The notes below the pieces were generated by a model that was given only the letters and a program-made list of their open reading frames with translations, ran no database searches and was not told the origin of the DNA. The position numbers were made by a program, and so were the translations under genes. Shown here one piece after another: positions 314-18,214 of a stretch of 64,000 nucleotides of DNA (positions within the stretch are counted from its first letter, which is position 1; each line of letters opens with the position of its first letter). This stretch comes from a virus (taxonomy: Duplodnaviria; Caudoviricetes), in IMG/VR virus record IMGVR_UViG_3300032167_000048; one strand, given 5' to 3'.

Positions 314-608
314 TGCCAGTTCCTCCAGTTTCTCCAGTTCAATTCCCAAATCTTCCAGTCGCCCAAAGTTCAGTCAAAGCACAAAGTTAAAGTTTTTAAA
401 AAATAGATTTTTCTGTTTCCAGTCGCTTTTCCAGTCGCTTCTCCAGTCGCCACACCAAACTAAAGTTTTTAAAAATTCCATTTTTCTGTCCAGTCAAATC
501 ACTCCAGTAAAGTTTTTAAAAATTCCATTTTTCTGATTTTCCAGTCGCCTCCAGTCAAGGCACAAAAAAGAGAGTGGATTTTCTCCACTCCCTTTTGAGT
601 TCCAGTAT
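314..608 (+). repeat. Dispersed short direct repeats TCCAGT(CGC)
   Basis: About 12 CCAGT copies, including three near-tandem TCCAGTCGC at 418-450. Confidence 0.7.
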
Positions 609-645
609 TCAGTTGTATGGGGTTATAATCCTATAACCTTATATG

Positions 646-921
646 TTATCCAGTAATAGTAAATCTTCTGCTTACTGTCTGTTTAACATACAATTTGTAA
701 ATGTCAGGACAAGCCGTTTTAAATGTTGTAGTGTCAAATCTGTTACTAGATACATTTTTGTATTTAATACAGTATCTTCCACATTTCATTTCTTCTTTGC
801 TCTGCATTTCTGCTTTGATTTCATCTTTGATAGCTTCGATTTCTTCCTCGGCTTCTTTTACGATTGCTTCAAGTTCTTTGAGTTCTTCAATCTTTTTCAT
901 TAGTTCAATAGTAGTCATCAT
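646..921 (-). CDS. Small coiled-coil phage protein resembling the C-terminal region of YqaJ-type recombinases
   Basis: Own promoter, GGAGG RBS and terminator; RFDTTTFK..CPDIYKLY...SRRF tail. Confidence 0.75.
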   Translation of the reverse strand: MMTTIELMKKIEELKELEAIVKEAEEEIEAIKDEIKAEMQSKEEMKCGRYCIKYKNVSSNRFDTTTFKTACPDIYKLYVKQTVSRRFTITG

Positions 922-1034
922 AAAATTTTCCTCCTAGCATTGGTGCTTTGTTTATACTGTTCTTTTAACTGTCTTTATTATACCACCTATATATCTACTT
1001 GTCAAGTATTTATTTAAAACTTTTTAAATTATTT

Positions 1035-1077
1035 TTTCCGTGTATCTTCCGTGTATCTTCCGTGTATCTTCCGTGTA
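1035..1077 (+). repeat. Tandem 11-bp repeat (TCTTCCGTGTA) x4
   Basis: Directly visible; another copy near 10103. Confidence 0.9.
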
Positions 1078-1465
1078 GTTTATGAACGTATGTTCTAGTT
1101 TGTGAATTTGATATTTTTATGTTATATCACATTCACATTGCATAAAATCTTCCAACTGGCATAGATGTAAAGTTTTTAAATATTCCATTTTTCTGTGCGT
1201 TCTGGAGCATACAAGTAAAGTTTTTAAAAATTAGGATTTTTTGGATGACAGTCCTATATAAATAAAGTTTTTAAAAATTCAATATTTTTGGATTGATAAA
1301 TCAAGATAAATCAACAAGATAAAGTTTTTAAAAATTCAACTTTTTTGGATTGCCAGATATGACAAAGTAAAGTTTTTAAAAATTCAACTTTTTTGGTTTG
1401 TACCTGTGGATGTTACAGCACAAAAAAAGACTAGGCTTTTCGCCTAGTCTTATAACCTTATTTGT

Positions 1466-2062
1466 TTAGTGTTCGTGGAATGCTACGTGTTCGCCATTCT
1501 TTAAGCTCCAACAGTTCACATTCTTCTTTGCACATTCTAAACAGTTTCCAGTACAGATGTTCCAGTTTTCTTTAGGTTCGCAACCTTTAAAGATAACGTG
1601 TGCAACTGGAATATTATGTGGGTTTTCCATTGTCATACCTTCCCATTCTGAAAAGATAAGATGTAAGTTAGTTGGAATGCTTCCACCATTATTGATATAT
1701 GTATTAACAAAATGGTATCTTTTTGTAAATACTAAGATGTCACAATGTGGATTCATTTTTGCTACGTCTACCATATCTACAAGATATTCATAACAAGGAA
1801 TGTCGCCAGCTACGTGCATTCTGAAGAATCGGCTTGTACACATTGCGTCAGATACCTGATTCCAATATTCAACTGGGTTATTCATGTAGAGTTCAAGATT
1901 TCTATTATAAGAATCTCGCACGTTTTTGTATCTACACATTCTTTTTGCGTAGCACTTTTTAGCACAAGTGCAACCGCTCGCACATGTTACGATTGGTGGT
2001 AAAGATACACTTTTAATTTCGCCCATTTTTACATTTCCTTTTGATACACTAATTGTCATCAT
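1466..2062 (-). CDS. GP88-like Cys-rich (radical-SAM-like) protein
   Basis: SLPP..TC...C.CAKKCYAKR, FFRMHVAGD and C-terminal CxxxCxxC; promoter, RBS and terminator. Confidence 0.7.
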   Translation of the reverse strand: MMTISVSKGNVKMGEIKSVSLPPIVTCASGCTCAKKCYAKRMCRYKNVRDSYNRNLELYMNNPVEYWNQVSDAMCTSRFFRMHVAGDIPCYEYLVDMVDVAKMNPHCDILVFTKRYHFVNTYINNGGSIPTNLHLIFSEWEGMTMENPHNIPVAHVIFKGCEPKENWNICTGNCLECAKKNVNCWSLKNGEHVAFHEH

Positions 2063-2149
2063 AATAAATACCTCTCTTTTCTAAGATGCTTTGTTTTATT
2101 TGTTAAGCTAATTATACACTATAAAAAACCACTTGTCAACTACTATTTT

Positions 2150-2395
2150 AAATTTAATTATAATTATTTAATAATAATTATCATATAATTATAGGTCATA
2201 ATTTAATAGGTCATAATTTAATCGGTCATAATTTAATCTGTTATAATTTAATAATTATTATAATAGTAATTATTATCATGTTATAATAGTAATCATTATT
2301 ATTGTAGGTATTGTGCAATTATTTTATATAATTAAAACAATTCAAAATAATTAAAATAGTTTAAACAATTTAAACAATTCAAACAATTTAGTTGG
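2150..2395. repeat. Very AT-rich tract with GGTCATAATTTAAT x3 and AAACAATT(T/C) repeats
   Basis: Visible at 2194-2238 and 2334-2390. Confidence 0.8.
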
Positions 2396-2912
2396 TTAAA
2401 GTTTTTTAAAAATAGGTTTTTTTGTCTATTATAACATATTTTTAATAATTTGTCAAGTAGTTTTATAGAAAATTTTTTAACGTACATATAAGTAAAGTTT
2501 TTAAAAATTGGATTTTTTTGGACTACCAGAACCAGCAAACATATAAGTAAAGTTTTTAAAAATTAGAAAAATTTGGCACAGTCTATATTCTGGAAACATA
2601 AAGCTAAAGTTTTTAAAAATTCGAAAAAATTGGATGCTGGTCGCCTGCCAGATACAACAAACTAAAGTTTTTAAAAATTGGACTTTTTTGTCCCAGCAGG
2701 TCGCAACCGTATATTAAAGTAAAGTTTTTAAAAATTGGATTTTTTTGGATTGCTGGTTGCCGTCTGGGAGAATGGTTTAAAGTTTTTAAAAATTCAACTT
2801 TTTTGGACGCTGGAGCTGTACCAGATACAACGGTTTAAAGTTTTTAAAAATTTAACTTTTTTGGCACGCTCCAGAAAATAAAAAATAAGGGCTGATTTCT
2901 CAGCCCTCATTT

Positions 2913-3230
2913 TTATTCATTCAATAGATAACAATAATCAACTTTCCAACCGTCTACTCCATGCATATACCAATCAAGTCTCACCCCTAAATCTGTTCCA
3001 TCTAAACAATCTGCAAAAATAGAATTGCTTGACTGGTTTGGTAAGAATGCTTTTTGGTCACTGGTAAATTCATAACTGCGTTCTAGCTCTGTATATGGTG
3101 CTGTAAAACTATTCTCTGTAAATACTACAACTCCAGTTAATCGCTTTTCATTGCCTTTTGTTTTGTAGCCGTGTTCTTCGTTGAATTTCCACATTGCTTC
3201 AATCATTTCATTCCAAGTAATTTTTTTCAT
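2913..3230 (-). CDS. Hypothetical cassette protein
   Basis: 105 aa; promoter, GAGG RBS and terminator. Confidence 0.85.
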   Translation of the reverse strand: MKKITWNEMIEAMWKFNEEHGYKTKGNEKRLTGVVVFTENSFTAPYTELERSYEFTSDQKAFLPNQSSNSIFADCLDGTDLGVRLDWYMHGVDGWKVDYCYLLNE

Positions 3231-3570
3231 AGTTTTTACCTCTTTTCTTTATTAAGTTGTTTTATTAGGTTAATACTATTGTAAAGGATAACAAGCTATT
3301 TGTCAAGTAGAATTTTATATTTTTTTAAATTAAATTGATTGATTTTTTCTATAAGTATATATAAAGTTTTTAAAAATTAGATTTTTTAATTAGTAAAGTT
3401 TTTAAATATTTAAAAAAATTGGCAGCAGGCAGCAGTCTGGCATTAACAAAGTAAAGTTTTTAAAAATTGCATTTTTTTGGCTATGCTGGAATAACGGTTT
3501 AAAGTTTTTAAAAATTTAATTTTTTTGGATAAAAAATCCAATAAAAAAAGGAGGACTGCTCCTCCTAATT

Positions 3571-3708
3571 TTATTTAACCTCAAAAGGGACTTCTGCATC
3601 CCAGTCCCATGATTCGTATAAGTCCATCATACGACCAATAGAGTTCTGTGCCAACTCTGGTTTTGCCCCTCTAGATACTTCTAAATCAAAATATTCACTC
3701 CATGTCAT
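3571..3708 (-). CDS. 45-aa acidic cassette protein (not in ORF track)
   Basis: MTWSEYFDLEVSRGAKPELAQNSIGRMMDLYESWDWDAEVPFEVK; AGGAG RBS, promoter at 3757-3785, terminator right after the stop. Confidence 0.8.
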   Translation of the reverse strand: MTWSEYFDLEVSRGAKPELAQNSIGRMMDLYESWDWDAEVPFEVK

Positions 3709-3955
3709 AGCTCAAATCTCCTATTTAAAAATATACTCTGTTCACTTGTTAAATATATTGTATCATGTTAGTTGCTATTTGTCAAGTAGTTTGATTTATT
3801 TTTTTAAATATTTTTTATAAAAATTAAAACCAAAGTTTTTAAAAATTCAACTTTTTTGGATTTAGCTGTATTAAATAAAATTGTAAAGTTTTTAAAAATT
3901 CAATTTTTTTGGCTAGATAAAAATAAAATATAAAAGCACAAAAAAAAGAGACTGT

Positions 3956-4264
3956 TTACCAGTCTCTCTCTTTTGAACGTGGTCTATAACCGAACATGTC
4001 CTTGTGCCAGTCTGAGTAGAATCCCCAAGTTTCATCATCAATCTCATTCCAGCTCTTGCCCTTAATGTTCTTTTCATAGAACGCATCAAACTGTTCTTGA
4101 TTCTCTTCTCGGTATCTCTCATCCATGATTGAGCTTAAAAAGAAGTACTTCTTATATGTAGCATCCCAATCATTATCGCAAGGATTCATTAGTTCTAACA
4201 TGTCGCCAAGTCTTCTCATCTCGCTTCTGATTTCATCGTTAGTCATTGTGTTGTAGTTCATCAT
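3956..4264 (-). CDS. Hypothetical cassette protein
   Basis: GGAGG RBS favours the ATG at 4264; promoter and terminator present. Confidence 0.8.
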   Translation of the reverse strand: MMNYNTMTNDEIRSEMRRLGDMLELMNPCDNDWDATYKKYFFLSSIMDERYREENQEQFDAFYEKNIKGKSWNEIDDETWGFYSDWHKDMFGYRPRSKERDW

Positions 4265-4595
4265 AACTAAGCCCTCCATATATTCTGTTGTTTATATACT
4301 AAGTATACACCACATTTAATAACTTGTCAAGTAGTTTTATAAAATTATTTAAACTTTTTTGCCGTACCTGTCGCCAGCCTGAGTAGAACAACGGTTTAAA
4401 GTTTTTAAAAATTGAAAATTTTTGGCAGCAGGCAGCAGGCGATTAAAGTTTTTAAAAATTCAACTTTTTTGGCTTGCCAGCTGTTTATCGCTGGCAAGTG
4501 GCAGCAGTCAATTAAAGTTTTTAAAAATTTAATTTTTTTGGATTGAAAAAATAAAATAAACATTTTAAGAGAATAAAAAAATGAGCTAGATTTCT

Positions 4596-4841
4596 CTAGC
4601 TCTTTGGCATTCTTACTATTTTGTGTTTACAACAATAGTCATATAATTTTGCTTGATTCATTTCACACATTTCTTGTGTAAAATCATTTACTATTAAGAT
4701 TTCATCTACACATTTACTCATTGTGCTTAACTCACTCTTCCAGCCTCTCATGGTCTTATTTCTGAGTTTTTGTAAACCATTGTTTCCCATTGGATTCTGC
4801 ATTCCTAAACTTCCTAAGTTAATAAATCCTACTGCGTACAT
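4596..4841 (-). CDS. Hypothetical cassette protein
   Basis: 81 aa; AAGGAG RBS, promoter and terminator. Confidence 0.8.
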   Translation of the reverse strand: MYAVGFINLGSLGMQNPMGNNGLQKLRNKTMRGWKSELSTMSKCVDEILIVNDFTQEMCEMNQAKLYDYCCKHKIVRMPKS

Positions 4842-5141
4842 ATTAAGTTCTCCTTTACTTATTGAGTTGTTTTATTTGTTAATATAATGATACACCATAG
4901 CTTGCTATTTGTCAAGTAGTTTATTTAAAATACTTTAAATTATTTTTTGACTGGTGACGGTGACGACACACGGTTGTTGTAGTTGTTAAAATATAGTTTT
5001 TAAATATTTAAAAAAATTGGCAGCAGGCAGCAGGCTTTTAAAGTTTTTAAAAATTGAATTTTTTTGGATTTTAAAAAATAAAAGACAACTTTTAAGAGAA
5101 TAAAATAAGGGCGATAACTTACGTCATCGCCCATCATTTTA

Positions 5142-5399
5142 TTATGCAGTTTTTAAATTGTTTAATGCAAATTTTAAATAATCTAAATCTCCATTGAACT
5201 CCTCATGGCTTTTTACCCAATCATCACTCCACTCATCGAAATCTCCACGAACGGAAATTGTTATATCATTATCTGATATACTCTTGATTCTAGCAATTCC
5301 AAAACCGTCTAATGAATCATGGAAACCTACAAAGAACATAATTTCCATTCCTTCTTTTGCTTCACTAATGTTGTTAATAATAACTGCGTTGTTGTTCAT
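5142..5399 (-). CDS. Hypothetical cassette protein
   Basis: 85 aa; AAGGAG RBS, promoter and terminator. Confidence 0.8.
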   Translation of the reverse strand: MNNNAVIINNISEAKEGMEIMFFVGFHDSLDGFGIARIKSISDNDITISVRGDFDEWSDDWVKSHEEFNGDLDYLKFALNNLKTA

Positions 5400-5797
5400 A
5401 ATGAATCTCCTTTTCTTTATTAAGTTTTATTATTTGTTTTCCAACTGTCTTTAGTATACCACATAAGCAACTACTTGTCAACTACTAATTTAAAATAATT
5501 TAAAATAATTTTTTATCATAGCTTAATAAAGTTTTTAAATATTTAATTTTTCTGGCAGCAGGATGACAATTATATATAACTTTAAAGTTTTTAAAAATTG
5601 AAAAAAATTGGCAGCAGGTTGCCAGAAAAATTAAAAAGGTAAAGTTTTTAAAAATTCGATTTTTTTGTCACCAGACGGCAGCAGGATAAAGTTTTTAAAA
5701 ATTGAAAAAAATTGGCAGCAGGATTCTGGGTTTGATAAAATAGTAAAGTTTTTAAAAATTCGATTTTTTTGGATTTGAAAAGATTATGACTAAACAT

Positions 5798-5917
5798 AAA
5801 AAAAAGAGGGCTGATTTTTCAGCCCTCAAAAAACAACGGATATATATTTTCAACACATCAACAACAACAACAACACTACTAAAAGAAAAGAGAACGTATT
5901 CCGTTGTTTTTTATCTA
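5798..5917 (-). ncRNA. Candidate ~120-nt small RNA cassette
   Basis: Consensus promoter at 5923-5951, no ORF, a 13-bp perfect closing stem (5828-5840 with 5900-5912), then a terminator at 5798-5827. Confidence 0.75.
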
Positions 5918-5970
5918 ATATAATTATACTATAAATTAGTTAATTTGTCAAGTATATTTTTTAATTATTT

Positions 5971-6234
5971 TTACTTTCCAGCAAATCGTGGTAAAAATCT
6001 ATTAAACTCCACAGCTGGATAACTGCTTCTGTCAACGTGGTTAACAATTCCTACAAGGTCGTGTGCAAAGTTAAAGTTATCTGCGTTCAACCAATCTTCT
6101 AATCGCATGTTAAAATACTTATCTGCACTTTCAATATCCATTATAAGTGTTAACCGTTCTCCGTGATAGATTCCAAGCTCCTCTGCTCTTTCAGCTATTT
6201 TAACGTATATCATAAATCTTTCTTTGTCTTTCAT
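5971..6234 (-). CDS. Conserved small phage protein (DUF6874-like)
   Basis: LNADNFNFAHDLVGIVNHVDR...FLPRF motif; promoter and RBS. Confidence 0.65.
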   Translation of the reverse strand: MKDKERFMIYVKIAERAEELGIYHGERLTLIMDIESADKYFNMRLEDWLNADNFNFAHDLVGIVNHVDRSSYPAVEFNRFLPRFAGK

Positions 6235-6529
6235 AGTAATCGCTCCTTACTTGTTTTATTTAAGTTAATTATAACGCATATTCTTCTATTTGTCAAGTAG
6301 TATTTTATATTTTTTAACAAACTTTTCCTGAGCTAAAAAAATGTAAAGTTTTTAAAAATTGCATTTTTTTGGCGAGGTGGCAGCAGGCTGGACAAGTTTT
6401 TCAAAATTGATAAAAACTGTCCAGCTGGCAGCAGGATTCTAAAGTTTTTAAAAATTACATTTTTTTGGATTATGGCAGCAGGATGTCGGACAATGAAAAA
6501 GAGCGGTAGATTTCTCCACCGCTCTTGTT

Positions 6530-6904
6530 TTATACTAGCACCGCCTTTACTAATAACATCATGTTTGGTATAAATACTTCCCTTCCGAGTTCCTCACGGA
6601 CTATGTTTATTTGTCTGTCGGTCAATCCAATTGTGTTTCCCTCATCATCATGACTTACAAATACGCAATTACCCATGATTAAATCTAATACTCTGTTTCC
6701 ATCTCTGTCTAGTACTGCAACTTGAGGTTCAAGTCCAATTAACTTACCCTCTTCATTTATAATTGGGTCAATTCTTTCTTGTATGAATCTTTCGCACATA
6801 TATGCTCTTTCAATCCATCCACCAACTATTTCTTGCATAGTTTCTAAACTGTTTTCAATTTCTTTTTCTTTTAAGATTCCGTTTTCTAATACTATTGCTC
6901 TCAT
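6530..6904 (-). CDS. DUF3846-like protein
   Basis: NSLETMQEIVGGWIE...INEEGKLIGLEP motif. Confidence 0.75.
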   Translation of the reverse strand: MRAIVLENGILKEKEIENSLETMQEIVGGWIERAYMCERFIQERIDPIINEEGKLIGLEPQVAVLDRDGNRVLDLIMGNCVFVSHDDEGNTIGLTDRQINIVREELGREVFIPNMMLLVKAVLV

Positions 6905-7299
6905 GTTAAGCTCTCCTTTTCTTTTTGCTTTGTTATTATATATACATTATAACGCTAATTATTTATATTGTCAAGTAGTTTTATTAAATTTGTTTAAAAT
7001 ATTTCTCCAGTCGTCCACCTGTGACTCTGGTGTTATAGTTTTTAAATATTGAGAAATTTTGGAAAAACGCGTATACATTTAAAGTTTTTAAAAAATCAAT
7101 TTTTTTGGCAGCAGGTTGCCAGACAGGAATGGCACTCTAAAGTTTTTAAAAATTGAAAATTTTTGGCAGCAGGATACCAGATAAAATAATAAGTTAAAGT
7201 TTTTAAAAATTGGATTTTTTTGGATTATGCAAATCTGGTTTTAAACTAAACAAAAAAAGAAGAGTTGATTTCTCAACTCTTCCTATATAACCTTGTTTG

Positions 7300-7557
7300 T
7301 TAGTGTGCTACTTCTAAGCTACACCACCAAGCCTTACCTCCTCCGTTAATTCCTAACATATCAATAAAAGCGTTAATGTGTTTCATTGTAGTTGCACTGT
7401 AATCATCCCAAAGTCGTTCAAATCGTCCCTCATGCACTCTAGCAACGATTGTGTTGTAACTCTTTAATTCAATGTCGCCATTGTCTTTTTCAATTACTGT
7501 TGCTTTTCCGTAGAATGATTTCTGTCTGTTGTTTGGTTTAAGTTCGTAAGTTCTCAT
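7300..7557 (-). CDS. Hypothetical phage protein
   Basis: 85 aa, KSFYGKA...LKSYNTIVA...YSATTMKH; full cassette signals. Confidence 0.8.
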   Translation of the reverse strand: MRTYELKPNNRQKSFYGKATVIEKDNGDIELKSYNTIVARVHEGRFERLWDDYSATTMKHINAFIDMLGINGGGKAWWCSLEVAH

Positions 7558-7864
7558 GATGTTCTCTCCTTTTGAAATGTGTTATTTGTTTTATCTGTCT
7601 TTATTATAATGCATATATAACTATTTGTCAAGTAGTAAAATGAAATTTGTTTAAATTATTTTTTAGCTGGTGACACACGGTTGTTGTCGTTGTTATTATT
7701 TTAAAGTTTTTAAAAATCGATTTTTTTGACTCAACCGTTTTAGTTAAATAAAGTTTTTAAATATTTAAAAAAGTTGGCAGCAGGATGCCAGATAAAACAA
7801 CGGTTTAAAGTTTTTAAAAATTGGATTTTTTTGGATTAGACAGGCAAAAAAATATGTGTGGCGA

Positions 7865-8245
7865 CTACCACACATATTTATCATAAAGCTCTTTGATTTC
7901 ATCTTCGTTTTTTGTCTTTACACATTTATCAATGAGTTTAATATATGTATAAACCATATCATTATGTCTTTGCTGTTGTCTGTACTGGCTATAATCGTCA
8001 ATATACTGTACATATTTATCATAACCCCTTAAGAAGTATTCCATTACATCCTTTTTGTTGTCTTCTGTAATTTTAACTACTTCTCTGACTCTGTCTGTTT
8101 TTTTGATAGTTTCTAAATACGTTTTGTTTCCACTATCTTTGTCTACCTCGCAATTATTTAAATAATATTCTTTTTTACCATTTTCCTCTAATGTTAAGAA
8201 TAAATAATCTTTTTCAATTCCCTTCATTTTAACTAATACGTTCAT
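7865..8245 (-). CDS. Hypothetical cassette protein
   Basis: GGAGGT RBS favours the ATG at 8245; the track start at 8290 overlaps the promoter. Confidence 0.8.
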   Translation of the reverse strand: MNVLVKMKGIEKDYLFLTLEENGKKEYYLNNCEVDKDSGNKTYLETIKKTDRVREVVKITEDNKKDVMEYFLRGYDKYVQYIDDYSQYRQQQRHNDMVYTYIKLIDKCVKTKNEDEIKELYDKYVW

Positions 8246-8536
8246 GTTTGTACCTCCGTGCGTTGTTTCTTGTTGATTATATATTATCACATAAAAGATA
8301 TATTGTCAAGTAGTTTTGGATAAATTTGTTATTTTTTTCTGCTGTTAAAGTTTTTAAAAATTCATTTTTTTGACACGCCAGACGCATAAACGTAAAGTTT
8401 TTAAATATTTAATTTTTTTGGATTATGAAAACAGGATGTGGCATAAAGTTAAAGTTTTTAAAAATTCGATTTTTTTGGCATATAAAAAAATAAAAGAAAG
8501 ATTTTAAGAGAAATAAAAAAGGAGCTTTTCAGCTCC

Positions 8537-8722
8537 TTAAAACATGCATCCTATAATGTATAATGCAAATAACATTACAAAGATTGAAAGTGCTCCAACG
8601 AAGTCGAGTGCTTCTTCTTTTGAAATACCCCATTCATTCCAAAATCTTCTGAAACGAATCTTTGCATATTTTTTAATAAGTTTAATCTTTCTTTTATCTT
8701 CTTTGCTTAATAATGTTTTCAT
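8537..8722 (-). CDS. Small membrane protein
   Basis: Basic N-terminus, C-terminal hydrophobic helix; RBS, promoter and terminator. Confidence 0.75.
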   Translation of the reverse strand: MKTLLSKEDKRKIKLIKKYAKIRFRRFWNEWGISKEEALDFVGALSIFVMLFALYIIGCMF

Positions 8723-9158
8723 AATGTTTTCTCCTTTAAATATATGCTTCGTTTGTTGTTAATATTATGTTACCACATGTTTAATATAATGTCAAGTAGT
8801 TTTTTAAATATTTTTTATTTTTTCTGACTGGAATTAACTGGAGTGTACAGCGATTAAATAGTAAAGTTTTTAAATATTTAATTTTTTTGGCAGCAGGCAG
8901 CAGGACACTATTAGTTTTTAAAAAATGAGAAATTTTGGAAAAACGCGTATACATGTTAAAGTTTTTAAATATTTGATTTTTTTTGGATTGACCGTTTTTA
9001 CACATTTAAAGTTTTTAAATATTCAACTTTTTTGGATTTGATTTTTTTAGATTTTAAAAATGTAAAGTTTTTAAAAATTCGATTTTTTTGGCATGAAAAG
9101 AAATATAAAAAATAGCAATAAAAAAAGAACACGTTGTTTCCAACGTGTTCCATATGTT

Positions 9159-9416
9159 TTAAAATACGGATTCTAATAGACCACTAAAGCTGTTAGCTTC
9201 TTGTCTTTTGCGAATCATACTGTAATGATTCATACGAGCATCATACAATGTTGTTGCTCTCATGTATTCAATTTCAGTTCCGTCTGAGTAAAGTGCCATT
9301 GTTTCGTAAAATGGTCTCTTCTCATCGCTAAAGTATACTGTTGAGATATACTCATCTTTATTTGAGTACTGTGTATTAGGTTTACTGTGTAAAATGTGAA
9401 GTGATATTCTAGTCAT
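9159..9416 (-). CDS. Hypothetical cassette protein
   Basis: 85 aa; AAGGAGG RBS, promoter and terminator. Confidence 0.8.
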   Translation of the reverse strand: MTRISLHILHSKPNTQYSNKDEYISTVYFSDEKRPFYETMALYSDGTEIEYMRATTLYDARMNHYSMIRKRQEANSFSGLLESVF

Positions 9417-9672
9417 AATATTGACCCTCCTTAAGTAATATGTTGTTGTATTGCCCTCTTGAGCTATTTATAGTATATCAAATGATACATACGTTGTCAA
9501 GTAGTTTCATTAAATCTTTTCAATTTTATTTTCACAGGTGGTTTTTACATTAAAGTAAAGTTTTCAAAAATTCCATTTTTTTGGCGTGACCGTTTCAGTA
9601 TTTTAAAGTTTTTAAAAATTCCATTTTTTTGGCGTGACAAATTAAATAAAAAAAGAAGGTCTTGTGACCTTC

Positions 9673-9834
9673 TTAATTTTCCTTGAAAAATGCAGTTACT
9701 GTTTTTTCCACGTCTATTTCTGCATCTTCTCTTGCATCTGCAATGTTTACAGCATCTTCAAAGAACATTGCTTCAATATATTCATCAAATGATTCTCCGT
9801 TTTCTTTTTTAAAATAAATGTGCCATTTCTTCAT
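9673..9834 (-). CDS. 53-aa acidic cassette protein (not in ORF track)
   Basis: MKKWHIYFKKENGESFDEYIEAMFFEDAVNIADAREDAEIDVEKTVTAFFKEN; GGAGG RBS, promoter at 9879-9907, terminator. Confidence 0.8.
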   Translation of the reverse strand: MKKWHIYFKKENGESFDEYIEAMFFEDAVNIADAREDAEIDVEKTVTAFFKEN

Positions 9835-10374
9835 AATAAAATCCTCCGTATGTGTGTTGTATTGTTTTAACTGTCTTTATTATACATGATAAAAAGTATT
9901 ATGTCAAGTATTTTATTTAAATTTGTTTAAATTTATTCAAATTTTCCGAGCCACCGAAAGTTTAGAAATTGGAAAGTTTAAAATGTAAAGTTTTTAAAAA
10001 TTGAATTTTTTTGGAATATTCCGAGCGATAGAAAAATAGTTATTCCAAATGTTTAAAAACTTTATCACAATTATTCCTAATGTTTAAAAACATTTATTCA
10101 TATATCTTCCGTGTGATTGACAAATAAGTTTTTAAAAAATATATTTTTTTGTTTTACATATTTTCCAGTTGTAATTATGTATAATATAAATATTATTTTA
10201 AAGTTTTTAAAAATTCGATTTTTTTGGCTTGAATAAATTTTATCCAGACTGACGACAGGTTTTATCCATATTGGCAGCAGTCAATAATAAAAATGTAAAG
10301 TTTTTAAAAATTGCATTTTTTTGGCAAGTGGCAGCAGGCGACTAATTTTCCTATTCGCCAAAAGTGTTTGTTTA

Positions 10375-10800
10375 AATTTTCCGTTAGGTGCAAAGATTAA
10401 GTTAATTTATTCCGTTAGATTCCATTGATTTATTCCGTTAGATTCCATTGGTTTATTCTGCTTATTATATTATTGCTTATAATGTGTTTATTTTCCGTTT
10501 TAAGCTATGATATGTATTATATAGATATAAATATATAATGATATATTTAAAGCGTGTTTAAAGCGTTTTTAAAGCGTGTTTAAAGCGTGTTTACGCAAGC
10601 CCAAAGATTTTCCATGCAAGCCTACGATATAACGTCAAATCTTCCGTTTATCGCACGTTATATAGTACGTTGTAGCACGTTATATAGTACGTTGTATATA
10701 TACGTATACGATAGAAAAAATAATTGCATCCTGACGTTTTAAAAATTTTCCGTTAAACGCAAAGATTAGTTTAAAAACTTTCCGTTAAACGTAAAGTATA
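10375..10800. repeat. Non-coding block of mixed tandem and direct repeats
   Basis: TTTATTCCGTTAGATTCCATTG x2, TTTAAAGCGTGT x4, GCACGTTATATAGTACGTTGTA x2, TTTCCGTTAAACG x2. Confidence 0.85.
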
Positions 10801-10859
10801 TAAATGTAAAGTTTTTAAAAATTAGATTTTTTTGGTTTGTTAGCAAATAAAAAGAAGAG

Positions 10860-11222
10860 CTATCTCATAGCTCTTCTTCTTTTCGCTTCTTCAAGTCGCT
10901 TCTGAAACTCTTGTCTTCTTGCTTCTCTCTCTTCTTTTGATAAGATACCATGCTTCTTAAGGTATGCTGGGATTTCAGATTCTGCAATATATCTATCTGT
11001 GATATCATGATAGTCAATCGCTGGGTCACCAGTCTCTACAAAGCTCTCTAAGTGCACCAAATAAAACAACTCTTTGCTCATTTCACTTGTATGTGGGATA
11101 TTCAAACAGATTCTGCATTTTGTGTAGTTTGAGATGCTACCGAATGCGTACTCCATAATCATATCATTCTTTTCGCTTGCTACAAAACCTCTTGATAATA
11201 AATCGTATTTTAATTTTAACAT
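10860..11222 (-). CDS. Hypothetical protein
   Basis: GGAGG RBS favours the start at 11222 (MLKLKYD); terminator overlaps the stop. Confidence 0.75.
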   Translation of the reverse strand: MLKLKYDLLSRGFVASEKNDMIMEYAFGSISNYTKCRICLNIPHTSEMSKELFYLVHLESFVETGDPAIDYHDITDRYIAESEIPAYLKKHGILSKEEREARRQEFQKRLEEAKRRRAMR

Positions 11223-11302
11223 AATCTTGACCTCCAACTTTTTGCAATTTTTAAAAACTTTACTTTTCTTATTTGCTGGGGCTAATTTGTTAGCCCCATT
11301 CT

Positions 11303-11596
11303 TTACCATTCGTATCTTCTATACTCTTCGTATGCTTCGTAAATGCTTGTCATACTACACTGTGCAACCTCTGCACTTCCCCATGAATCGTGTCTGTAGT
11401 TAAACTCTTTCTTTTCATAGCGTTTTTTGTATGTTCTCGCTTCCTTGTCACAGGACTTTACGTAAAAGTCCTGAATTCTACTCTTCTCTTCTCTCTCCCT
11501 CTCTTCTCTTCTTCTTTTTGCTACCTCTTCTGGAAAATTCATTTCCTCGATAAATTCGAAATATGCGTCAATACTCTGAAATCTAATTCTTGCCAT
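11303..11596 (-). CDS. Hypothetical charged protein
   Basis: GAGG RBS favours the start at 11596 (MARIRFQ). Confidence 0.75.
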   Translation of the reverse strand: MARIRFQSIDAYFEFIEEMNFPEEVAKRRREEREREEKSRIQDFYVKSCDKEARTYKKRYEKKEFNYRHDSWGSAEVAQCSMTSIYEAYEEYRRYEW

Positions 11597-11686
11597 TTTA
11601 ATATCCTCACTTTCAATTTTTTGCAATTTTTAAAAACTTTACTTTGTGGTTTTTGGGGAAAGGGCTTTCGCCCTTTCCTTATAACC

Positions 11687-12706
11687 TTACTGGTATTTTT
11701 TGTAGATACCTACCAGCTTTTTCGCAGCCACATCTGCTTTGTGCTTGCGATACTCTGTTTTGGATGGAATTCGGTTTCCATTTACGTCCAATTTTGGGCT
11801 TCCGTCAGAGCTTTTTCTGTAGTATCTTCTTGTATCAATTTCCGTGTCATTGAAGTGTTCACAGAAGTTTCTTACGATACACTGCACCATTTCTACCTCC
11901 ATTTTCATGAGGTTCTGATACTGCTTTGCACTCACGAATTTGTTGATTCGGAATTCGATATTGTTATTTGCAAGGCAATTTACAAAGTAGTATCTATCAT
12001 CGTGTTCTTCCTGCTTGCTATTCCAGTCGATTGTGTCGGCATATCCGTTGAAGTATCTACCGAAAACTCTTTCAGTTGTTTCTCTATCGGCTTTCATTTC
12101 CTCGCATAATGGAATGAAAAGGCTATTGTAGAAACGTCTTACCATGTCCATGTATGAACCTTTGCCTGTGTTTTTGCCATTAGCATCTTTCATGCTATTG
12201 ATAGATACATGGAAGTGTGTACCACATGAGCTATTCACTTTTAAAATACCCTCATTCATGAGGTCTTCGCATGTCTGTGCAAACTTGCTTGGTCTGTTCA
12301 AGCCTTGCATAATCGCGGACACATATTCACAAGTGTTTCTATCGCGGCCGTATCTTGCACCATAGCCATCGCTTCTGAGGGAGCTGTCGTGTGTTGGGAT
12401 AAACCCATATTCAAACATGGCATTTCTGAGCTTGTCATCTGAAAAGCTGGTTTCGAATTCGATACCACAGAGCACGCCATTCTTTTTGGCAGTACCCATG
12501 ATTTTTTCATTTGCAGTATGATACCATAAGTTTCTAGCCGCGCATGTTGGGCACATGAGGCTTGCACGTCCTCCGCGCTTGCGGGAAATTGTACGTGTCA
12601 TAATTTCAATTGGAAAGTCGTGTCTACAGCAAGAGCAAGTTGCCTCGATGCGTCCGTGTCTACGTGTTGCGTTTGCGTCTGTGTTCATTGTGTTGATAGT
12701 TGTCAT
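11687..12706 (-). CDS. Putative amidoligase (COOH-NH2 ligase family) with an N-terminal Zn-finger
   Basis: GIEFE, HDSSL, EYVS, SCGTHFHVS and IEFR motifs; CSCC..CPTC; AAGGAGG RBS. Confidence 0.75.
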   Translation of the reverse strand: MTTINTMNTDANATRRHGRIEATCSCCRHDFPIEIMTRTISRKRGGRASLMCPTCAARNLWYHTANEKIMGTAKKNGVLCGIEFETSFSDDKLRNAMFEYGFIPTHDSSLRSDGYGARYGRDRNTCEYVSAIMQGLNRPSKFAQTCEDLMNEGILKVNSSCGTHFHVSINSMKDANGKNTGKGSYMDMVRRFYNSLFIPLCEEMKADRETTERVFGRYFNGYADTIDWNSKQEEHDDRYYFVNCLANNNIEFRINKFVSAKQYQNLMKMEVEMVQCIVRNFCEHFNDTEIDTRRYYRKSSDGSPKLDVNGNRIPSKTEYRKHKADVAAKKLVGIYKKYQ

Positions 12707-12899
12707 AGTTTTGTTCCTCCTTGATTTGAAAAAGTGTTTTGTTGTTTTCTGAGGCTAATACATCATAAAAATTTCTCTACGTCAATAGAAAGTTTTTAAA
12801 TTCTTTATTTTTCTGGAAACTTGCAAGTTTTTGCGTGGGGTGGGGGTGGTTTACAATTAAAAGTCGGAGGGGCGAGCCGCGTGGGGGAGAATGTAGTAC

Positions 12900-13170
12900 A
12901 CCTAATCCTATACACCCAACCCACCGTCCGATACAACCCAACACACAATCCACTCTCCACCCCCCCATTTCACATTTCCAACACGTCCCCCTATCCCAAC
13001 TAAACAAAACACCCCAAATACCCAAAGCAAATATCCGCCCCTCTCTTCCAACAACTCAACAATCCAACAACAACCATATCTCCCAACCAAACACATCAAA
13101 TCCCCATCCAAGACCAACAATATCTACTACTACCACAAAACTCTACCTATACCCTATACCCCCCTATTTC
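12900..13170 (-). repeat. C/A-rich tract (G-rich on the minus strand)
   Basis: Almost G-free 270 bp with many CCC runs; compositional mirror of 1-190. Confidence 0.8.
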
Positions 13171-13248
13171 ACAATAATTCAGGAAACCAATAATATGTGC
13201 TATTATATATACCTCCCTCCCCATATTGAAAATTTCTCTAAAAACTAC

Positions 13249-13277: not shown

Positions 13278-13539
13278 GACATCAACAAATAAAAACAAAT
13301 TGTTTTAAAATACAACTAATAAGGTTATAAAAATATTAGCACAAAAACAAAATACATAAAACGAAAGTTAACATCCTGAGCGATAGCTCAGTAGTATACT
13401 TATATGTAATGTTATTCTTATATGTATGAACGGAAAAGTTACATACATTTTGTACGGTGCTAAATGGTGATTATGGTTTGAGCACCGTACATTTTGTACG
13501 GTGGTCGTAAAATACAAATGCAGGAGGTGATAATTATTA

Positions 13540-14436
13540 ATGCCAACAGATAACACGACTTATGAACTTATTGATGGAAAGTATGAATATAAAAGAGTTC
13601 CATTAGAAGAACATCAGTCAGAGCACATATATATACCTTGGTCTGTTATCGCAAATACAAATCTGGATACAAGAAGAGTTGGGATATTTTCATATTTGAG
13701 AATACATCGTGGATTAAACAATGTTGTGAATCTAACTATTCCAGATGTTGTTGAGTGGTGTGGCGGTAAGCCAGATAGAAGAACAAATGGTACAAATGAC
13801 AAATTCTTATCTGTATTAGATAGCTTTGCTGAATATGGATATTTAACATATATTTCAGAAAGAAGTAAAAGTTCTTATATGAAATGCAAATTTGACAAAC
13901 AATATTATGGCAAGCAATGTGGAAATGGTTATGCAGTGGTTTATTTAGATGAAATTGAATCTATTATGAATTATCAAAAAGAAAATCTAAAAGATAGCAC
14001 TGTAAATAATTTTATTATTCTTTTGGTATTTGCATATTTAAGATATAAGATTATACGTAGACCAAATATGTTAAAGCCAGAAGAAAGAAGCTCAGAAATG
14101 ATAGAGAAAAGACGAATGAAATTGCCAGATGCTTATAATGGCAATCTTATAGATATGGCTGATGAGATAGGAATATCTTCTAAAACTCTATCGAAGATAA
14201 TTAATATACTTGAATGTGACCTACATTTAATTGTTACAGATAGAGCATATAGAATTAGAACAGAAGACGATGAGTATAGAACTCCTCCTACTATATTTGC
14301 AAACGCTTATAAAAGAGAAGATAAATATTTACTTATGACTGGCGATGAATATAGTAGAAATGAAATTGAATTAAAAGCTAAAAAAATCAAGAAATTCATT
14401 AGGGATTTCGAAATTAATAAAACAATAAGAAAATAG
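13540..14436 (+). CDS. Putative HTH DNA-binding or replication-initiator-like protein
   Basis: AGGAGGTG RBS; two winged-HTH-like segments (LIDMADEIGISSKTLSKIINIL). Confidence 0.55.
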   Translation: MPTDNTTYELIDGKYEYKRVPLEEHQSEHIYIPWSVIANTNLDTRRVGIFSYLRIHRGLNNVVNLTIPDVVEWCGGKPDRRTNGTNDKFLSVLDSFAEYGYLTYISERSKSSYMKCKFDKQYYGKQCGNGYAVVYLDEIESIMNYQKENLKDSTVNNFIILLVFAYLRYKIIRRPNMLKPEERSSEMIEKRRMKLPDAYNGNLIDMADEIGISSKTLSKIINILECDLHLIVTDRAYRIRTEDDEYRTPPTIFANAYKREDKYLLMTGDEYSRNEIELKAKKIKKFIRDFEINKTIRK

Positions 14437-14451
14437 AAAGGATAAATTATA

Positions 14452-14637
14452 ATGAACAATAAATTAACAATAAGTGATATTCGTTTTTTAGACGATAAAA
14501 TAGAGAAGGATATGTATCAATCTACTGATAATAGAACTTGGGGGTCATATGTAAGAGACATATATGATGGAGATAATTTTGCAGATTATTGCGAAGATTT
14601 ATTTGAATTATTAGAAGAAGAAGAATATTGGGATTAA
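14452..14637 (+). CDS. Small acidic protein
   Basis: AAAGGA RBS; in operon. Confidence 0.7.
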   Translation: MNNKLTISDIRFLDDKIEKDMYQSTDNRTWGSYVRDIYDGDNFADYCEDLFELLEEEEYWD

Positions 14638-14650
14638 GGATGGTGTTGTA

Positions 14651-17569
14651 ATGAGCTTGGATGTTCAGGTTCAGATTCTAAGTGTTGATACTGGAAACTT
14701 CTATAGTAATAAAGAAGCTTACCTTCATTGGTTTAATCATAAGCTTAGAATTGAAAGAAATGAATTAAAGAAAAAAGAAAATGAAATTATAAATGAGTTT
14801 TCTAAATATGGAATTGATAAAAATGATTTAGAACTAATTGCAAATAAAGATTATGATTATAGTTCTTGGGGAGAAGATAAACATACTTTGCTTACTCTTG
14901 GAATGGATTATTGTAGAGTGAGAGAATTAGTGAAACTAAAGAATAAGAAAATAAAAGAATCAAAAGATAGATTATTAGATTTATTATCAAATAAAATTGA
15001 AGCAAACATATCTACAAATGGAAAACATCATATTAGAGAATTAAGAAATTTAAATCCATCTGGTTCAAAAGGAGATATTCTTAAATTTGCAAATGAACCA
15101 TTTAATAATAATAAAATTATATCTGTATTTGATTCTGCTTTTACAAGAATGATTGGAGCAAAGCAGGATGAATTAACAGAAGATTTTATGGTTGTGCAGG
15201 TATATTACTTTGATATTATTAAGGACTTAATTTATCATGGATTTACATATAAGGGAGAAAAATATATTTACTTTACATCTTCTGCTGGTCAGATTAGAAC
15301 AAAGAAAACAGTATTCGTAAAAGAATCTGTTTGGAAAAAATATGAGAAGACAATTATGTGTGGACTTACAATTGATTCTATTAATGAAAAAGGTGGTAAT
15401 AATCCAAATAAGCATTTAGCGTATATGGCTTTAACAAACTCAGCTACAGATGTTTGGAAAGAGTTTGATATTGATAAGACGATTGTGGTAAATGATTTTG
15501 CAACTGACGTATTTGGAACTTATGATTTGGTAGATGATGTTGATTATTCTATTAAACGTATATCTGATTATGTACCAATTGAACATACAGATGGTGCTGG
15601 TATGATGTTGCCATGTATGGGCAAGAACAGAATGGTTCGTCTTCCTTGGGTAAAAGGATTGCTTGGTTCTTTTGATTATTTGAAATTTATTAAAGAAAAT
15701 AATTGTTCTCCAATAATTAAAGACATATATGGTGTTGAACATGATGTAATAGCAGAAGATATTCAGATTATATTTACAAAGTCTCAGTTTAAGATGTGTA
15801 AGTATTATGATTCTTGGGAACAGTACAAGGGATATTATAAGAAGTATGGTTGCTCTGCTGGATATACCAATATGGAAGAAGATAAGATTAAGGATGCAAC
15901 AATTAATTATCAAATGCTTCAAACACTTACTGATATTACAGATGAAGAAATAGACAATATTATTGAGAAGTCTAAAAATAACTTAGACGATTTAAAAACT
16001 CTTAATGGTATTAAAAGAGCATTTGGCATTACTCCATATAATGATAATATGACATATTTGCAACAAGCTATTAATTTGTATCCGTCATTATTAAATGATG
16101 AATATATGAAAATCACTTTAAGAGAAATAAAAGATAGCTTGGTAAAAAGATATAGGTCTGGTAGTTTAGCAATAAAAGGAAAATATACATTTATACTCCC
16201 AGACTTGTATGCGGCTTGTGAACATTGGTTTATGGGAATTGAAAATCCAAAAGGATTATTAGACGATGGAGAAGTTTTTTGCTGGCTGTTTAAAAAAGAC
16301 GATAAGCTGGATTGTTTAAGAAGTCCTCATTTATATAAAGAACATGCAATTAGAACAAATATTGCTTGTAATAAATATAAAGAACGTCAACAGCAAATTC
16401 GTGAATGGTTTGGAACAGATGCTATTTATACAAGCTGTCATGATTTAATTAGTAAGATTCTTCAGTTTGACGTTGATGGAGATAAGAGTTTAGTAGTAGC
16501 TGATAAAAGTATAGTTGATGTAGCAGAAAGAAATATGAAAGGCATTGTGCCACTATATTACAATATGAAAAAAGCTTCTCCTATTCAATTAAATAATCAG
16601 ACCATTTATAATGGATTAAATGCAGCTTTTGTTGGTGGCAATATTGGGATTTATAGTAATAATATTTCTAAAATTTGGAATAGTGATGTTTTTATTAGTG
16701 GAACAGAAGAAGAGAAACAAAGAGCAATAAATTTAGTTAAGTTATTGTGCATGGAGAACAACTTTGTTATTGACTATGCAAAAACATTATATAAACCAGA
16801 AAGACCAGATTCTGTTCATGAAGAGATTATTAATTTTACAAAAGATAATGTGCCACACTTTTTCGTATATGCAAAGGATAAGGGTGATTCTCAGGTTGAA
16901 GATGCAAATGAAAGCTTTGTAAATAAACTTGAAACTAAAATCAAAAATCCAAGAATTAATTGTAGAAACTTAAAAGGATATGATGGTAATAAACTTGGTA
17001 ATATTGATTATAAAAAATTAGTAAGTAATCCAGATGTGGAATGTAAAATTGCATTTAATAAAAATGGAACAGTTAATGATGAGTTGTCTGACCCAATGAT
17101 TGTTAAATATTTTGAATTAAATAATAAATATCATTTTAAAGTTAATATGGAATGTGCAGATATGATAAGGGGTGAATTATTAAATAATACACAATTAAAA
17201 CAAGATTTGTTCTTTAAGAAGATTGCAAATGAAATTAGATATGAGCTTTCTCAGTTTGGATATTCTGATTTGGAAGTAACAGATATTTTAGTTAAATTAT
17301 TATATCATATTAAACCTAGTAGCCATAAGAGTGTGCTTTGGTTTTGCTATGGTAAATATATAGTTGATAATTTAATAAATAATAATTGCAAACCAAAAAC
17401 AAAAGCAATTAAATGTGTTGATTGTGGAGAATGGATAGAAGTTGAAAACGATAAGAAGCATTTAAAAACTTGTAGATGTGAAACTTGTGATTACGAATAT
17501 AAGAAAATGCTTAAAGCAAAGCAGAATAAACGTGCATATTTAAAAAATAAAAAAATCAGTAGCGATTAA
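14651..17569 (+). CDS. yonO: YonO-like single-subunit DNA-dependent RNA polymerase
   Basis: Catalytic QFDVDGD motif, TDGAG, RLPWVKG, LRSPHL, C-terminal Zn ribbon; position upstream of an HU-like gene and the morphogenesis operon as in SPbeta. Confidence 0.85.
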   Translation: MSLDVQVQILSVDTGNFYSNKEAYLHWFNHKLRIERNELKKKENEIINEFSKYGIDKNDLELIANKDYDYSSWGEDKHTLLTLGMDYCRVRELVKLKNKKIKESKDRLLDLLSNKIEANISTNGKHHIRELRNLNPSGSKGDILKFANEPFNNNKIISVFDSAFTRMIGAKQDELTEDFMVVQVYYFDIIKDLIYHGFTYKGEKYIYFTSSAGQIRTKKTVFVKESVWKKYEKTIMCGLTIDSINEKGGNNPNKHLAYMALTNSATDVWKEFDIDKTIVVNDFATDVFGTYDLVDDVDYSIKRISDYVPIEHTDGAGMMLPCMGKNRMVRLPWVKGLLGSFDYLKFIKENNCSPIIKDIYGVEHDVIAEDIQIIFTKSQFKMCKYYDSWEQYKGYYKKYGCSAGYTNMEEDKIKDATINYQMLQTLTDITDEEIDNIIEKSKNNLDDLKTLNGIKRAFGITPYNDNMTYLQQAINLYPSLLNDEYMKITLREIKDSLVKRYRSGSLAIKGKYTFILPDLYAACEHWFMGIENPKGLLDDGEVFCWLFKKDDKLDCLRSPHLYKEHAIRTNIACNKYKERQQQIREWFGTDAIYTSCHDLISKILQFDVDGDKSLVVADKSIVDVAERNMKGIVPLYYNMKKASPIQLNNQTIYNGLNAAFVGGNIGIYSNNISKIWNSDVFISGTEEEKQRAINLVKLLCMENNFVIDYAKTLYKPERPDSVHEEIINFTKDNVPHFFVYAKDKGDSQVEDANESFVNKLETKIKNPRINCRNLKGYDGNKLGNIDYKKLVSNPDVECKIAFNKNGTVNDELSDPMIVKYFELNNKYHFKVNMECADMIRGELLNNTQLKQDLFFKKIANEIRYELSQFGYSDLEVTDILVKLLYHIKPSSHKSVLWFCYGKYIVDNLINNNCKPKTKAIKCVDCGEWIEVENDKKHLKTCRCETCDYEYKKMLKAKQNKRAYLKNKKISSD

Positions 17570-17797
17570 AATTATTTGTAAACAACCAAAAAATAAGGTT
17601 ATATATAATATATAAAATTTATAAATAGCCTTAAAATAAGGAGTGTAAAATAGTAGCAAAAGGGGAAACACCCTATAACAAGCAATTATTCTTAAAGGTT
17701 GCTGGACAGAAAGTACTAATTAGAAACTACAGTCAACCTTTAAGATATTTTGTCGTCCTCCTTATTTTAAACACAAATTAAATTGGAGGTAGATATA

Positions 17798-18214
17798 TTG
17801 AGTGATAAATTAACGATAACAAAAGAAAATTTAATTAATATCATATCAAATAAATGTGAAGATGATTTTATTTCGACAAGTGATTTAATTAAAATAATAG
17901 ATAGCATTTCTGATGAGTATGGCGTTATTTCAAAGAAAAAGATAATGAAAGCAATTAAAGATTCGCATACAAAAAAAGTTGTTAAGGATATCTACGATAT
18001 AGTAGAGACTTCTTTATTTGAATCTCTTTCTTTAGTTAATGAAAAACAAAATGTTAATATTAAATTGTTTGAGGGTATTAGTTTAAGTGGAAATTATACT
18101 TCTGAAAAAATTAAAAAAAATAATTTAACTGGTGAAATGGCACTTGTTAAAGGTAAGATTAAACCTAAATTTAATATTACTCGTACTTATTGTGAAAAAT
18201 TAAATAACAAATAA
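17798..18214 (+). CDS. HU/IHF-like DNA-binding protein
   Basis: VNIKLFEGISL...KKNNLTGE....KIKPKFNIT arm pattern; GGAGGT RBS before a TTG start. Confidence 0.65.
   Translation: MSDKLTITKENLINIISNKCEDDFISTSDLIKIIDSISDEYGVISKKKIMKAIKDSHTKKVVKDIYDIVETSLFESLSLVNEKQNVNIKLFEGISLSGNYTSEKIKKNNLTGEMALVKGKIKPKFNITRTYCEKLNNK

Follow-up and report, generated by a model that had tools for sequence, protein, structure and literature searches.

Two kinds of phage regulatory element come closest to the locus described here. T4-type phages carry promoter-early stem-loops (PeSLs; Arbiol et al. 2010, PMC2839356; PMC4122927), and in SPbeta the SPBRE elements, found at about 10 promoters, are the operators of the master repressor MrpR (YopR) (PMC10516654). 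We analysed a 64,000-nucleotide stretch of the virus record IMGVR_UViG_3300032167_000048, called the window below, in which small single-gene cassettes on the minus strand alternate with clusters of a short repeated motif. With PeSL-like shuffling cassettes and a putative SPBRE-like repeated operator, this locus joins two known kinds of system, and its array is unusually dense and phased. With moderate confidence, at about an even chance, we propose that the repeats are phased operator arrays for a phage-lineage-specific DNA-binding regulator of the leftward early promoters, analogous to the SPBRE/MrpR system.

Similar to the PeSL regions, the array is a hyperplastic early region of small ORFan genes, each placed between a strong promoter of host type and a stem-loop terminator. 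In PeSL regions, relatives differ by insertion, deletion, replacement or reordering at the repeated regulatory modules; in the array a like coincidence is suggested by homology blocks that end between cassettes. However, the window belongs to an unrelated group, the SPbeta-like siphoviruses of Firmicutes, and it places 100-400 bp with 2-7 phased palindromic motifs between terminator and promoter, a motif that PeSLs lack. The SPBRE/MrpR system is found in the same phage group and the same neighbourhood, divergent from yonP-yonO, and likewise has a repeated element where early or lysogeny-controlled genes have their promoters; several of these genes form units of one gene, each with a terminator. 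SPBREs differ in being 15-bp elements, of which one or two overlap the promoter or lie against it, whereas the 57 copies of the window form phased arrays, most of them at a distance of 37-79 bp or more. The sequences are also unrelated, SPBRE being roughly ACAAATACAAAAAATATGTATA and the motif described here CCAAAAAAAT-NN-AATTTTTAAAAACTTTA.

Two further systems invite comparison. In SPO1, a bank of small early genes is expressed from many strong host promoters and equipped with terminators, and its HU-family protein TF1 binds early-promoter DNA; phased repeat arrays are not known from that phage. The window shares with SPO1 the early-gene bank, the many strong host promoters and a phage-encoded HU-family protein, but here the HU-like protein does not co-vary with the class of motif. 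Integrons likewise hold exchangeable single-gene cassettes parted by imperfect palindromes, and the initial annotation of the locus had called it integron-like. This comparison does not hold, because the window cassettes carry their own promoters and terminators and several repeats stand at each junction. There is no adjacent recombinase (IntI), no attI and no attC-like structure in the motif; the flanking genes encode an amidoligase and a 298-amino-acid (aa) helix-turn-helix (HTH) protein.

A palindromic motif with an invariant core

The repeated unit could be aligned as CCAAAAAAAT-NN-AATTTTTAAAAACTTTA-N6-T-R. When up to two mismatches were allowed, AATTTTTAAAAACTTTA occurred 57 times in the window as compared to 0.49 expected, always between positions 388 and 11641, and 54 of the 57 copies were on the minus strand. 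None was found in the remaining 52 kb. Between each terminator and the next promoter there were 2-7 co-oriented copies. Across all 54 minus-strand copies, 12 of the 17 core positions were invariant while the 17-28-bp spacers were unrelated to each other, which indicates selection on the core. About one third of the units extended at the 5' side to CTGCTGCC, an octamer present in 21 copies, all co-oriented, against 0.1 expected, and exact identity between repeats reached 36-39 bp.

In two related phages, L202 and L002, the core was found inside a full palindrome of ~36 bp, CAAAAAA..TTTAATTTTTAAAAA.TAAA..TTTTTTG. The window element is a degenerate palindrome of ~38 bp, centred on a TTTTT/AAAAA step and degenerate in its right arm. 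Thus, the conserved T-R downstream of the core appears to be a remnant of the right arm and not a transcription start. A CRISPR-like reading was ruled out because the clusters are short and interrupted by genes, and a sigma-54-like reading of TGGCAGCAGGTTGCC was ruled out because GG and GC stand one base too close together. The region had no megablast match in a phage collection, and exact-motif scans of IMG/VR gave no match to a 29-mer and only single chance matches to a 17-mer.

Helical register and placement at promoters

Start-to-start spacing within the clusters was 47/48 bp (11 cases) or 57/58 bp (13 cases), that is, 4.5 and 5.5 helical turns, and this quantisation gave a Rayleigh R of 0.69 at a 10-bp period. 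In L202 the spacing was likewise quantised, at 38/39 and 48 bp. The distances from the proximal repeat to the -35 box (37, 46, 46, 48, 56, 56, 60, 67, 67, 71, 77 and 79 bp) fitted best to a period of 10.4-10.5 bp (p ~0.003), with the same phase. The quantised spacing and the common phase place the repeats on defined helix faces relative to each other and to the promoter.

The motif was present upstream of 14 of the 16 leftward promoters, and one copy lay just downstream of the -10 box of promoter P2456. Its placement was not limited to the cassettes. A degenerate copy, at ~12779-12806, abuts the -35 box of the promoter of the amidoligase operon, and to the left of the window, on contig L080, single copies stand upstream of sigma-A promoters that serve tightly packed polycistronic operons. 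The rightward promoter of the polymerase operon (~13240) had no motif copy. From this placement, which includes operon promoters, the element goes with leftward early promoters and not with cassette borders alone.

Motif classes among relatives

Relatives were collected from IMG/VR as homologues of the window's polymerase (50-79% identity) with their flanks, and more were found in ENA and GenBank metagenomes. Many of them hold arrays at the same place, with a repeated word that differs by lineage, and six share the array design. Class A, the TTTTTAAAAA-type motif, was found in the window, L202, L002, L207, L208 and L007; class B, GGTATAATATACC, in L047 and L206; and class C, TAATCGTTAACAAC, in L024 and L010. 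Further classes exist, for example TCCAC-N-GTGGA. The words other than class A are palindromic too, as seen in GGTATAATATACC, a GTTAAC core and TCCAC-N-GTGGA. All 66 class C copies of a complete 131-kb relative lie in one 10-kb stretch beside the polymerase gene, and the class B copies of another record span about 21 kb. L047 has the polymerase most similar to that of the window (79%) and yet a completely different motif. We read this replacement as evidence that the array and its reader form a swappable module.

Anatomy of the cassettes

Between positions 1005 and 9907 the minus strand carries 16 promoters with an exact TTGACA, a 17-bp spacer and TAnnnT (Table 1). Eight of them match the consensus at 12 of 12 positions, most are preceded by ACTAC, and they carry A/T-rich (UP-like) upstream tracts of their own. 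Fourteen are followed, 33-55 nucleotides (nt) downstream, by a ribosome-binding site and a single ORF (open reading frame) of 45-198 aa. Terminator-like sites were about five-fold enriched (26 found, 5.3 expected), and a terminator closes 13 of the 14 protein units; the remaining unit reads into a unit for a small RNA (sRNA). The 14 proteins are mutually unrelated (all-against-all BLASTP, best E = 0.013). These results bear out what the initial annotation had reported on three points: minus-strand units of repeat cluster, promoter, ribosome-binding site, small ORF and terminator at 388-10882, a terminator missing only after 5971..6234, which holds for the protein units, and ORFs unrelated to each other. 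Its array of about 15 single-gene cassettes is real, and the count resolves into 14 protein cassettes and one sRNA cassette.

The two promoters that are not directly followed by an ORF are P5951 and P2456. The RNA expected from P5951 has a 13-bp closing stem, a U/G-rich loop and a fold z-score of -4.9, and ends in the terminator. The arrangement at 5798-5951, a family G cassette with a second promoter, was found again in L202. P2456 precedes P2139 and has a leader filled with tandem repeats, 4.2 copies of the 15-bp ATAGGTCATAATTTA and 6.4 copies of the 9-bp AATTAAAAC; this two-promoter layout before the GP88 gene is also kept in L202. A perfect 11-bp tandem repeat, TTCCGTGTATC in 3.8 copies, was found at 1036-1077, just upstream of P1005. 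The array extends past the left edge of the window.

Searches of Pfam, PHROGs and PADLOC with all cassette ORFs, with 8 ORFs past the left edge and with 10 ORFs of the class C array returned DUFs or nothing, and PADLOC gave no meaningful match. The family matches were GP88 (a Cys-rich protein), DUF3846, DUF6874, DUF8033 and a piece resembling the C-terminus of a RecE-type protein. That the cassettes are host-takeover or anti-defence genes, as had been suggested, is a reasonable guess made solely from their position and promoter type.

Table 1. Features of the cassette array and the adjoining operons (positions in the window)
Feature	Coordinates	Strand	Content
Whole array	388..10823	-	18 clusters of 1-7 motif copies (54 in total, all co-oriented) alternating with 16 promoters
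Largest motif cluster	2493..2852	-	7 copies, 55-58-bp spacing
Two inverted motif copies	11246-11262, 11625-11641	+	One immediately before the ribosome-binding site of each of two small genes (97 aa and 120 aa) in the amidoligase operon
Cassette P9907	9653..9907	-	ORF 9673-9834 (53 aa); terminator 9674-9653
Cassette P9500	9126..9500	-	ORF 9159-9416 (85 aa); terminator 9151-9126
Cassette P8795	8519..8795	-	ORF 8537-8722 (61 aa); terminator 8538-8519
Cassette P8309	7850..8309	-	ORF 7865-8245 (126 aa); terminator 7879-7850; homologue at another array position in L202
Cassette P7631	7257..7631	-	ORF 7300-7557 (85 aa, DUF8033/phrog_4264); terminator 7284-7257; unit kept in all 7 relatives compared
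Cassette P6974	6499..6974	-	ORF 6530-6904 (124 aa, DUF3846); terminator 6526-6499
Cassette P6296	5971..6296	-	ORF 5971-6234 (87 aa, DUF6874); without own terminator
Protein-less cassette P5951 (perfect promoter)	5798..5951	-	Structured RNA of ~120 nt; terminator 5827-5806
Cassette P5481	5109..5481	-	ORF 5142-5399 (85 aa); terminator 5132-5109
Cassette P4915	4583..4915	-	ORF 4596-4841 (81 aa); terminator 4602-4583
Cassette P4330	3939..4330	-	ORF 3956-4264 (102 aa); terminator 3975-3939; homologue at another array position in L202
Cassette P3785	3549..3785	-	ORF 3571-3708 (45 aa); terminator 3566-3549
Cassette P3306	2881..3306	-	ORF 2913-3230 (105 aa); terminator 2914-2881
Two-promoter cassette P2456 + P2139	1427..2456	-	Leader repeats 2152-2388; ORF 1466-2062 (198 aa, GP88 family); terminator 1451-1427
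Cassette P1005	572..1005	-	ORF 646-921 (91 aa, phrog_434-like C-terminal piece); terminator hairpin 590-572
Head operon of the divergent side	10860..12706	-	Zn-ribbon amidoligase-family protein (339 aa), 97-aa and 120-aa proteins
Conserved rightward operon, anchor of SPbeta synteny	13540..18214	+	298-aa HTH protein; 61-aa gene call (in near-identical contigs); YonO-like polymerase (972 aa) 14651-17569; HU-like protein 17783-18214

Cassette content and order differ among relatives

Clustering of all minus-strand ORFs gave cassette maps of seven related phages, read from the polymerase side, in which a letter denotes an ORF family and a dot an ORF found in one genome only. The maps are B..... 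I A C D.. J.. F G for the window; B. A J.. C I D K. L F for L202; B. A K. E. C M D. H for L208; B. A. M N E. C. D. for L207; B.. H.. A... C G. for L002; O A P.. E. H.. G F. for L206; and O... P. E N. L A.. for L047. Roughly every second cassette occurs in a single phage, and shifts of position were seen for families I, J, K, M, H, A and F/G. The DUF8033 cassette, aligned from seven phages, is conserved from the UP-like tract and the ACTACTTGACA promoter across leader and ORF as far as a short box behind the stop codon. Its terminator is at the same position in most phages with a different sequence, and similarity stops at the arrays.

Nucleotide blocks in common with L202 (for example window positions 7904-8371 and 3834-4292) begin within one array or promoter and extend as far as the following one, although selection for intact units would yield similar block edges. 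The nearest informative relatives have ~70% DNA identity, at which crossover points are not placeable to the base. The comparison of sequences thus supports the view that related phages have gained, lost and reordered cassette units. Varying content and order, with block ends in repeat or promoter space, is also the result that the initial annotation had asked for as a check, and such exchange may run through the repeats. Ten contigs of the same strain were 99.9% identical, and the copy number of the 11-bp tandem repeat at 1036-1077 was the only indel, so that no ongoing shuffling is visible.

A regulatory reading of the repeats and its alternatives

The proposal of operator arrays draws on five features: the motif is palindromic, its core is kept base-perfect while the spacers vary freely, it stays within the early region, it is replaced from lineage to lineage, and it is in helical register with promoters. 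The sites at operon promoters, the register with the -35 box and the palindromy in relatives further suggest a regulatory site first and recombination homology second. Host sigma-A RNA polymerase would read each small gene from its own consensus promoter, and the terminator of each unit would insulate it. The regulator whose binding we infer is probably dimeric, its site being a palindrome with the flexible TTTTT/AAAAA centre. Given the spacing of ~4.5 and 5.5 turns and the promoter register, protein bound along the array could assemble into a single higher-order complex and so switch the whole set of leftward early promoters at once. The effect would likely be silencing, in the prophage or after the early phase; it is likelier than activation because the promoters are already consensus and have A/T-rich tracts of their own. 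As a by-product, the identical repeats of ~30-39 bp and the promoter modules would provide many co-oriented crossover points, where homologous recombination could delete, duplicate, move or exchange whole cassettes between related phages. It is plausible that such recombination occurs as a secondary effect; it would explain the cassette flux, in the way demonstrated for the PeSLs of T4-type phages.

A more specific version, which we regard as speculative and rather unlikely, is an array code for each lineage. A private protein would polymerise on the phased, half-turn-offset palindromes into a repressive filament that switches the cassette bank, the motif class would define an exchange compatibility group for co-infecting phages, since a crossover requires repeats that match, and the replacement seen in L047 would be a swap of regulator plus array.

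Several observations weigh against operators of a phage regulator. Most sites stand clear of the promoter, 37-79 bp or more before its -35 box, which is unusual for a simple repressor. Among the candidates tested, no motif-binding protein was identified. For MrpR, tblastn gave no match over the 64-kb window and 2.8 kb of adjoining sequence, out of a genome of ~153 kb; among five related records, four were without a match and one had a weak match only. The 298-aa HTH protein was ruled out as the specificity factor because class A and class B phages have the same HTH helix, the HU-like protein because its similarity tracks the polymerase tree and not the motif class, and the 339-aa protein because it belongs to the Zn-ribbon amidoligase family. 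No Pfam-recognisable DNA-binding domain was found among the early ORFs of the window, 8 ORFs beyond its left edge and 10 ORFs of the class C array. YonR, YopO and other SPbeta regulators gave no matches in the window. The structural model of the DUF3846 protein, which co-occurs with class A arrays, was confident (pLDDT 95.6) and had no fold match in the PDB and no DNA-binding fold.

The repeats might instead be non-regulatory and be kept as PeSL-like crossover homology, so that the accessory-gene bank stays exchangeable. The intact units of varying content and order, the block ends in repeat or promoter space and the exact repeats of up to 36-39 bp are consistent with this, and co-orientation is expected if the repeats spread by unequal crossing-over. 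Crossover homology, however, needs neither palindromy, promoter phasing nor an invariant core beside free spacers; single copies also stand upstream of operon promoters, and near-identical strains from several samples lack cassette polymorphism beyond the 11-bp indel, so we consider this explanation unlikely. Quite unlikely, in our judgement, is that the arrays act through DNA shape or host RNA polymerase, as landing pads that resemble UP elements or promoter fragments and concentrate or titrate polymerase with no phage protein. The class A core (T5A5 with a flanking A-tract) does resemble UP-element sequence bound by the C-terminal domain of the polymerase alpha subunit (alpha-CTD), TGGTATAAT of class B matches an extended -10 box perfectly, arrays and promoters share a helical register, and no gene for a binder was found. 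Against this, class C (TAATCGTTAACAAC) and the TCCAC/GTGGA class are unlike promoter parts, letter-perfect conservation over 17 bp exceeds what shape readout needs, and consensus promoters with their own UP-like tracts need no help.

A very small probability attaches to dif- or lox-like sites at which a tyrosine recombinase excises or inserts cassettes. A palindrome of ~34-38 bp has the size and symmetry of a core site, and the five related records carry 1-4 tyrosine-recombinase-family genes each, but 2-7 tandem sites stand at each junction instead of one, their spacing is phased to promoters, and no recombinase lies in or beside the array (none of the ORFs scanned in the stretch from 1 to 14.6 kb had a recombinase domain). 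MrpR of SPbeta, which has a recombinase fold, is itself a repressor without recombinase activity (PMC10516654). It is highly improbable that the repeats serve a phage-redirected polymerase as promoters (CCAAAA-N17-ACTTTA, for instance, and a Y-R start 7 nt further on), which would set tandem middle promoters before each early promoter. The copies are co-oriented with the genes, and a conserved T followed by A/G occurs 7-8 nt after the core; L202 explains this T-R as a degenerate right palindrome arm, however, the closest polymerase, that of L047, is paired with a wholly different motif, YonO of SPbeta starts at one late promoter (PMC5467207), and no sigma-like gene was seen. Least credible is the multiplication of selfish palindromes in intergenic DNA, similar to repetitive extragenic palindromes (REP) or miniature inverted-repeat transposable elements (MITE). 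Lineage-specific palindromes grouped in intergenic space would fit, but in complete genomes they are confined to one early region of 10-20 kb, with strict orientation, helically phased spacing and no transposase nearby.

Large SPbeta-like phages are common in Firmicutes of gut and rumen, and their early regions consist almost entirely of ORFans. A design of insulated single-gene units with dense, phased, lineage-specific sites could explain both the common control of dozens of very strong promoters and the fast turnover of accessory genes. The motif can be used directly as bait for the regulator, and the cassettes offer a set of candidates for host takeover or counter-defence in Lachnospiraceae. 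For low-GC Gram-positive bacteria, the promoters, terminators and operators lend themselves as natural, insulated modules of expression.

Genomic setting

The 64-kb window contains genes for terminase, portal and endolysin, very large ORFs of the tail region and eight tRNA genes. The 972-aa ORF of the rightward operon is a YonO-type single-chain RNA polymerase, whose identity is 41-44% with YonO of SPbeta and 49% with a protein from a Clostridium phage. From the 298-aa HTH protein through the 61-aa gene call, polymerase, HU-like protein and tRNAs to a YonJ-like exonuclease, the gene order is that of SPbeta yonP-yonO-yonN-(tRNA)-yonJ, and a divergent set of small genes, the cassette array, lies on the opposite side of the polymerase block. 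The polymerase type and gene order place the array in the divergent early region of what, judged by its genes, is a large SPbeta-like phage of a low-GC Firmicute host. Identical copies of the proteins in this gene order were encoded on contigs as long as 153 kb in many metagenomes, and one of the relatives bears the label Lachnospiraceae. This gut phage has a genome of ~153 kb, probably infects Lachnospiraceae and is probably temperate.

In relative L203, bacterial-looking genes (MFS transporter, DUF386, DHDPS) at 1-2380 lie directly upstream of the homologue of the 298-aa gene. This suggests a prophage end, at the place where the window has a C-rich tract. Long C-rich, G-poor tracts bracket the leftward early region, at 1-200 on the minus strand and 12835-13200 on the plus strand, and similar CA-rich tracts were found upstream of cassette promoters in relatives and of the SPbeta yonP, yonT and yonX promoters. 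A rut-like or att-related role for them is possible.

Directly after the last motif cluster, at 246-310 on the minus strand, there are five co-oriented DnaA-box-like nonamers within ~70 bp (TGTGGATAA three times, TGTGGAAAA twice), and GACTGG-type tandem repeats of 9-12 bp follow beyond them at 316-450. An ORF-free, origin-like stretch at 10394-10700, between the amidoligase operon and the first cassette, holds three different tandem iterons (23 bp x2.8, 11 bp x4.4 and 22 bp x2). In the amidoligase operon (11303-12706), the Zn-ribbon gene is followed by one for a small acidic/basic protein whose aromatic C-terminus is conserved (...YEAYEEYRRYEW; in L208 ...YEAYYEYSTNRNYW), and the two may be an enzyme-substrate pair. 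A scan of 1-19.5 kb against Rfam found tRNAs only. The 5' leader of the polymerase operon (13380-13520) contains an element of ~120 nt with repeated cattttgtacggtg hairpins, which had no Rfam match; a second such element, ~80% alike, was found on L080 at ~13700-13830, in the leader of a leftward operon beyond the window.

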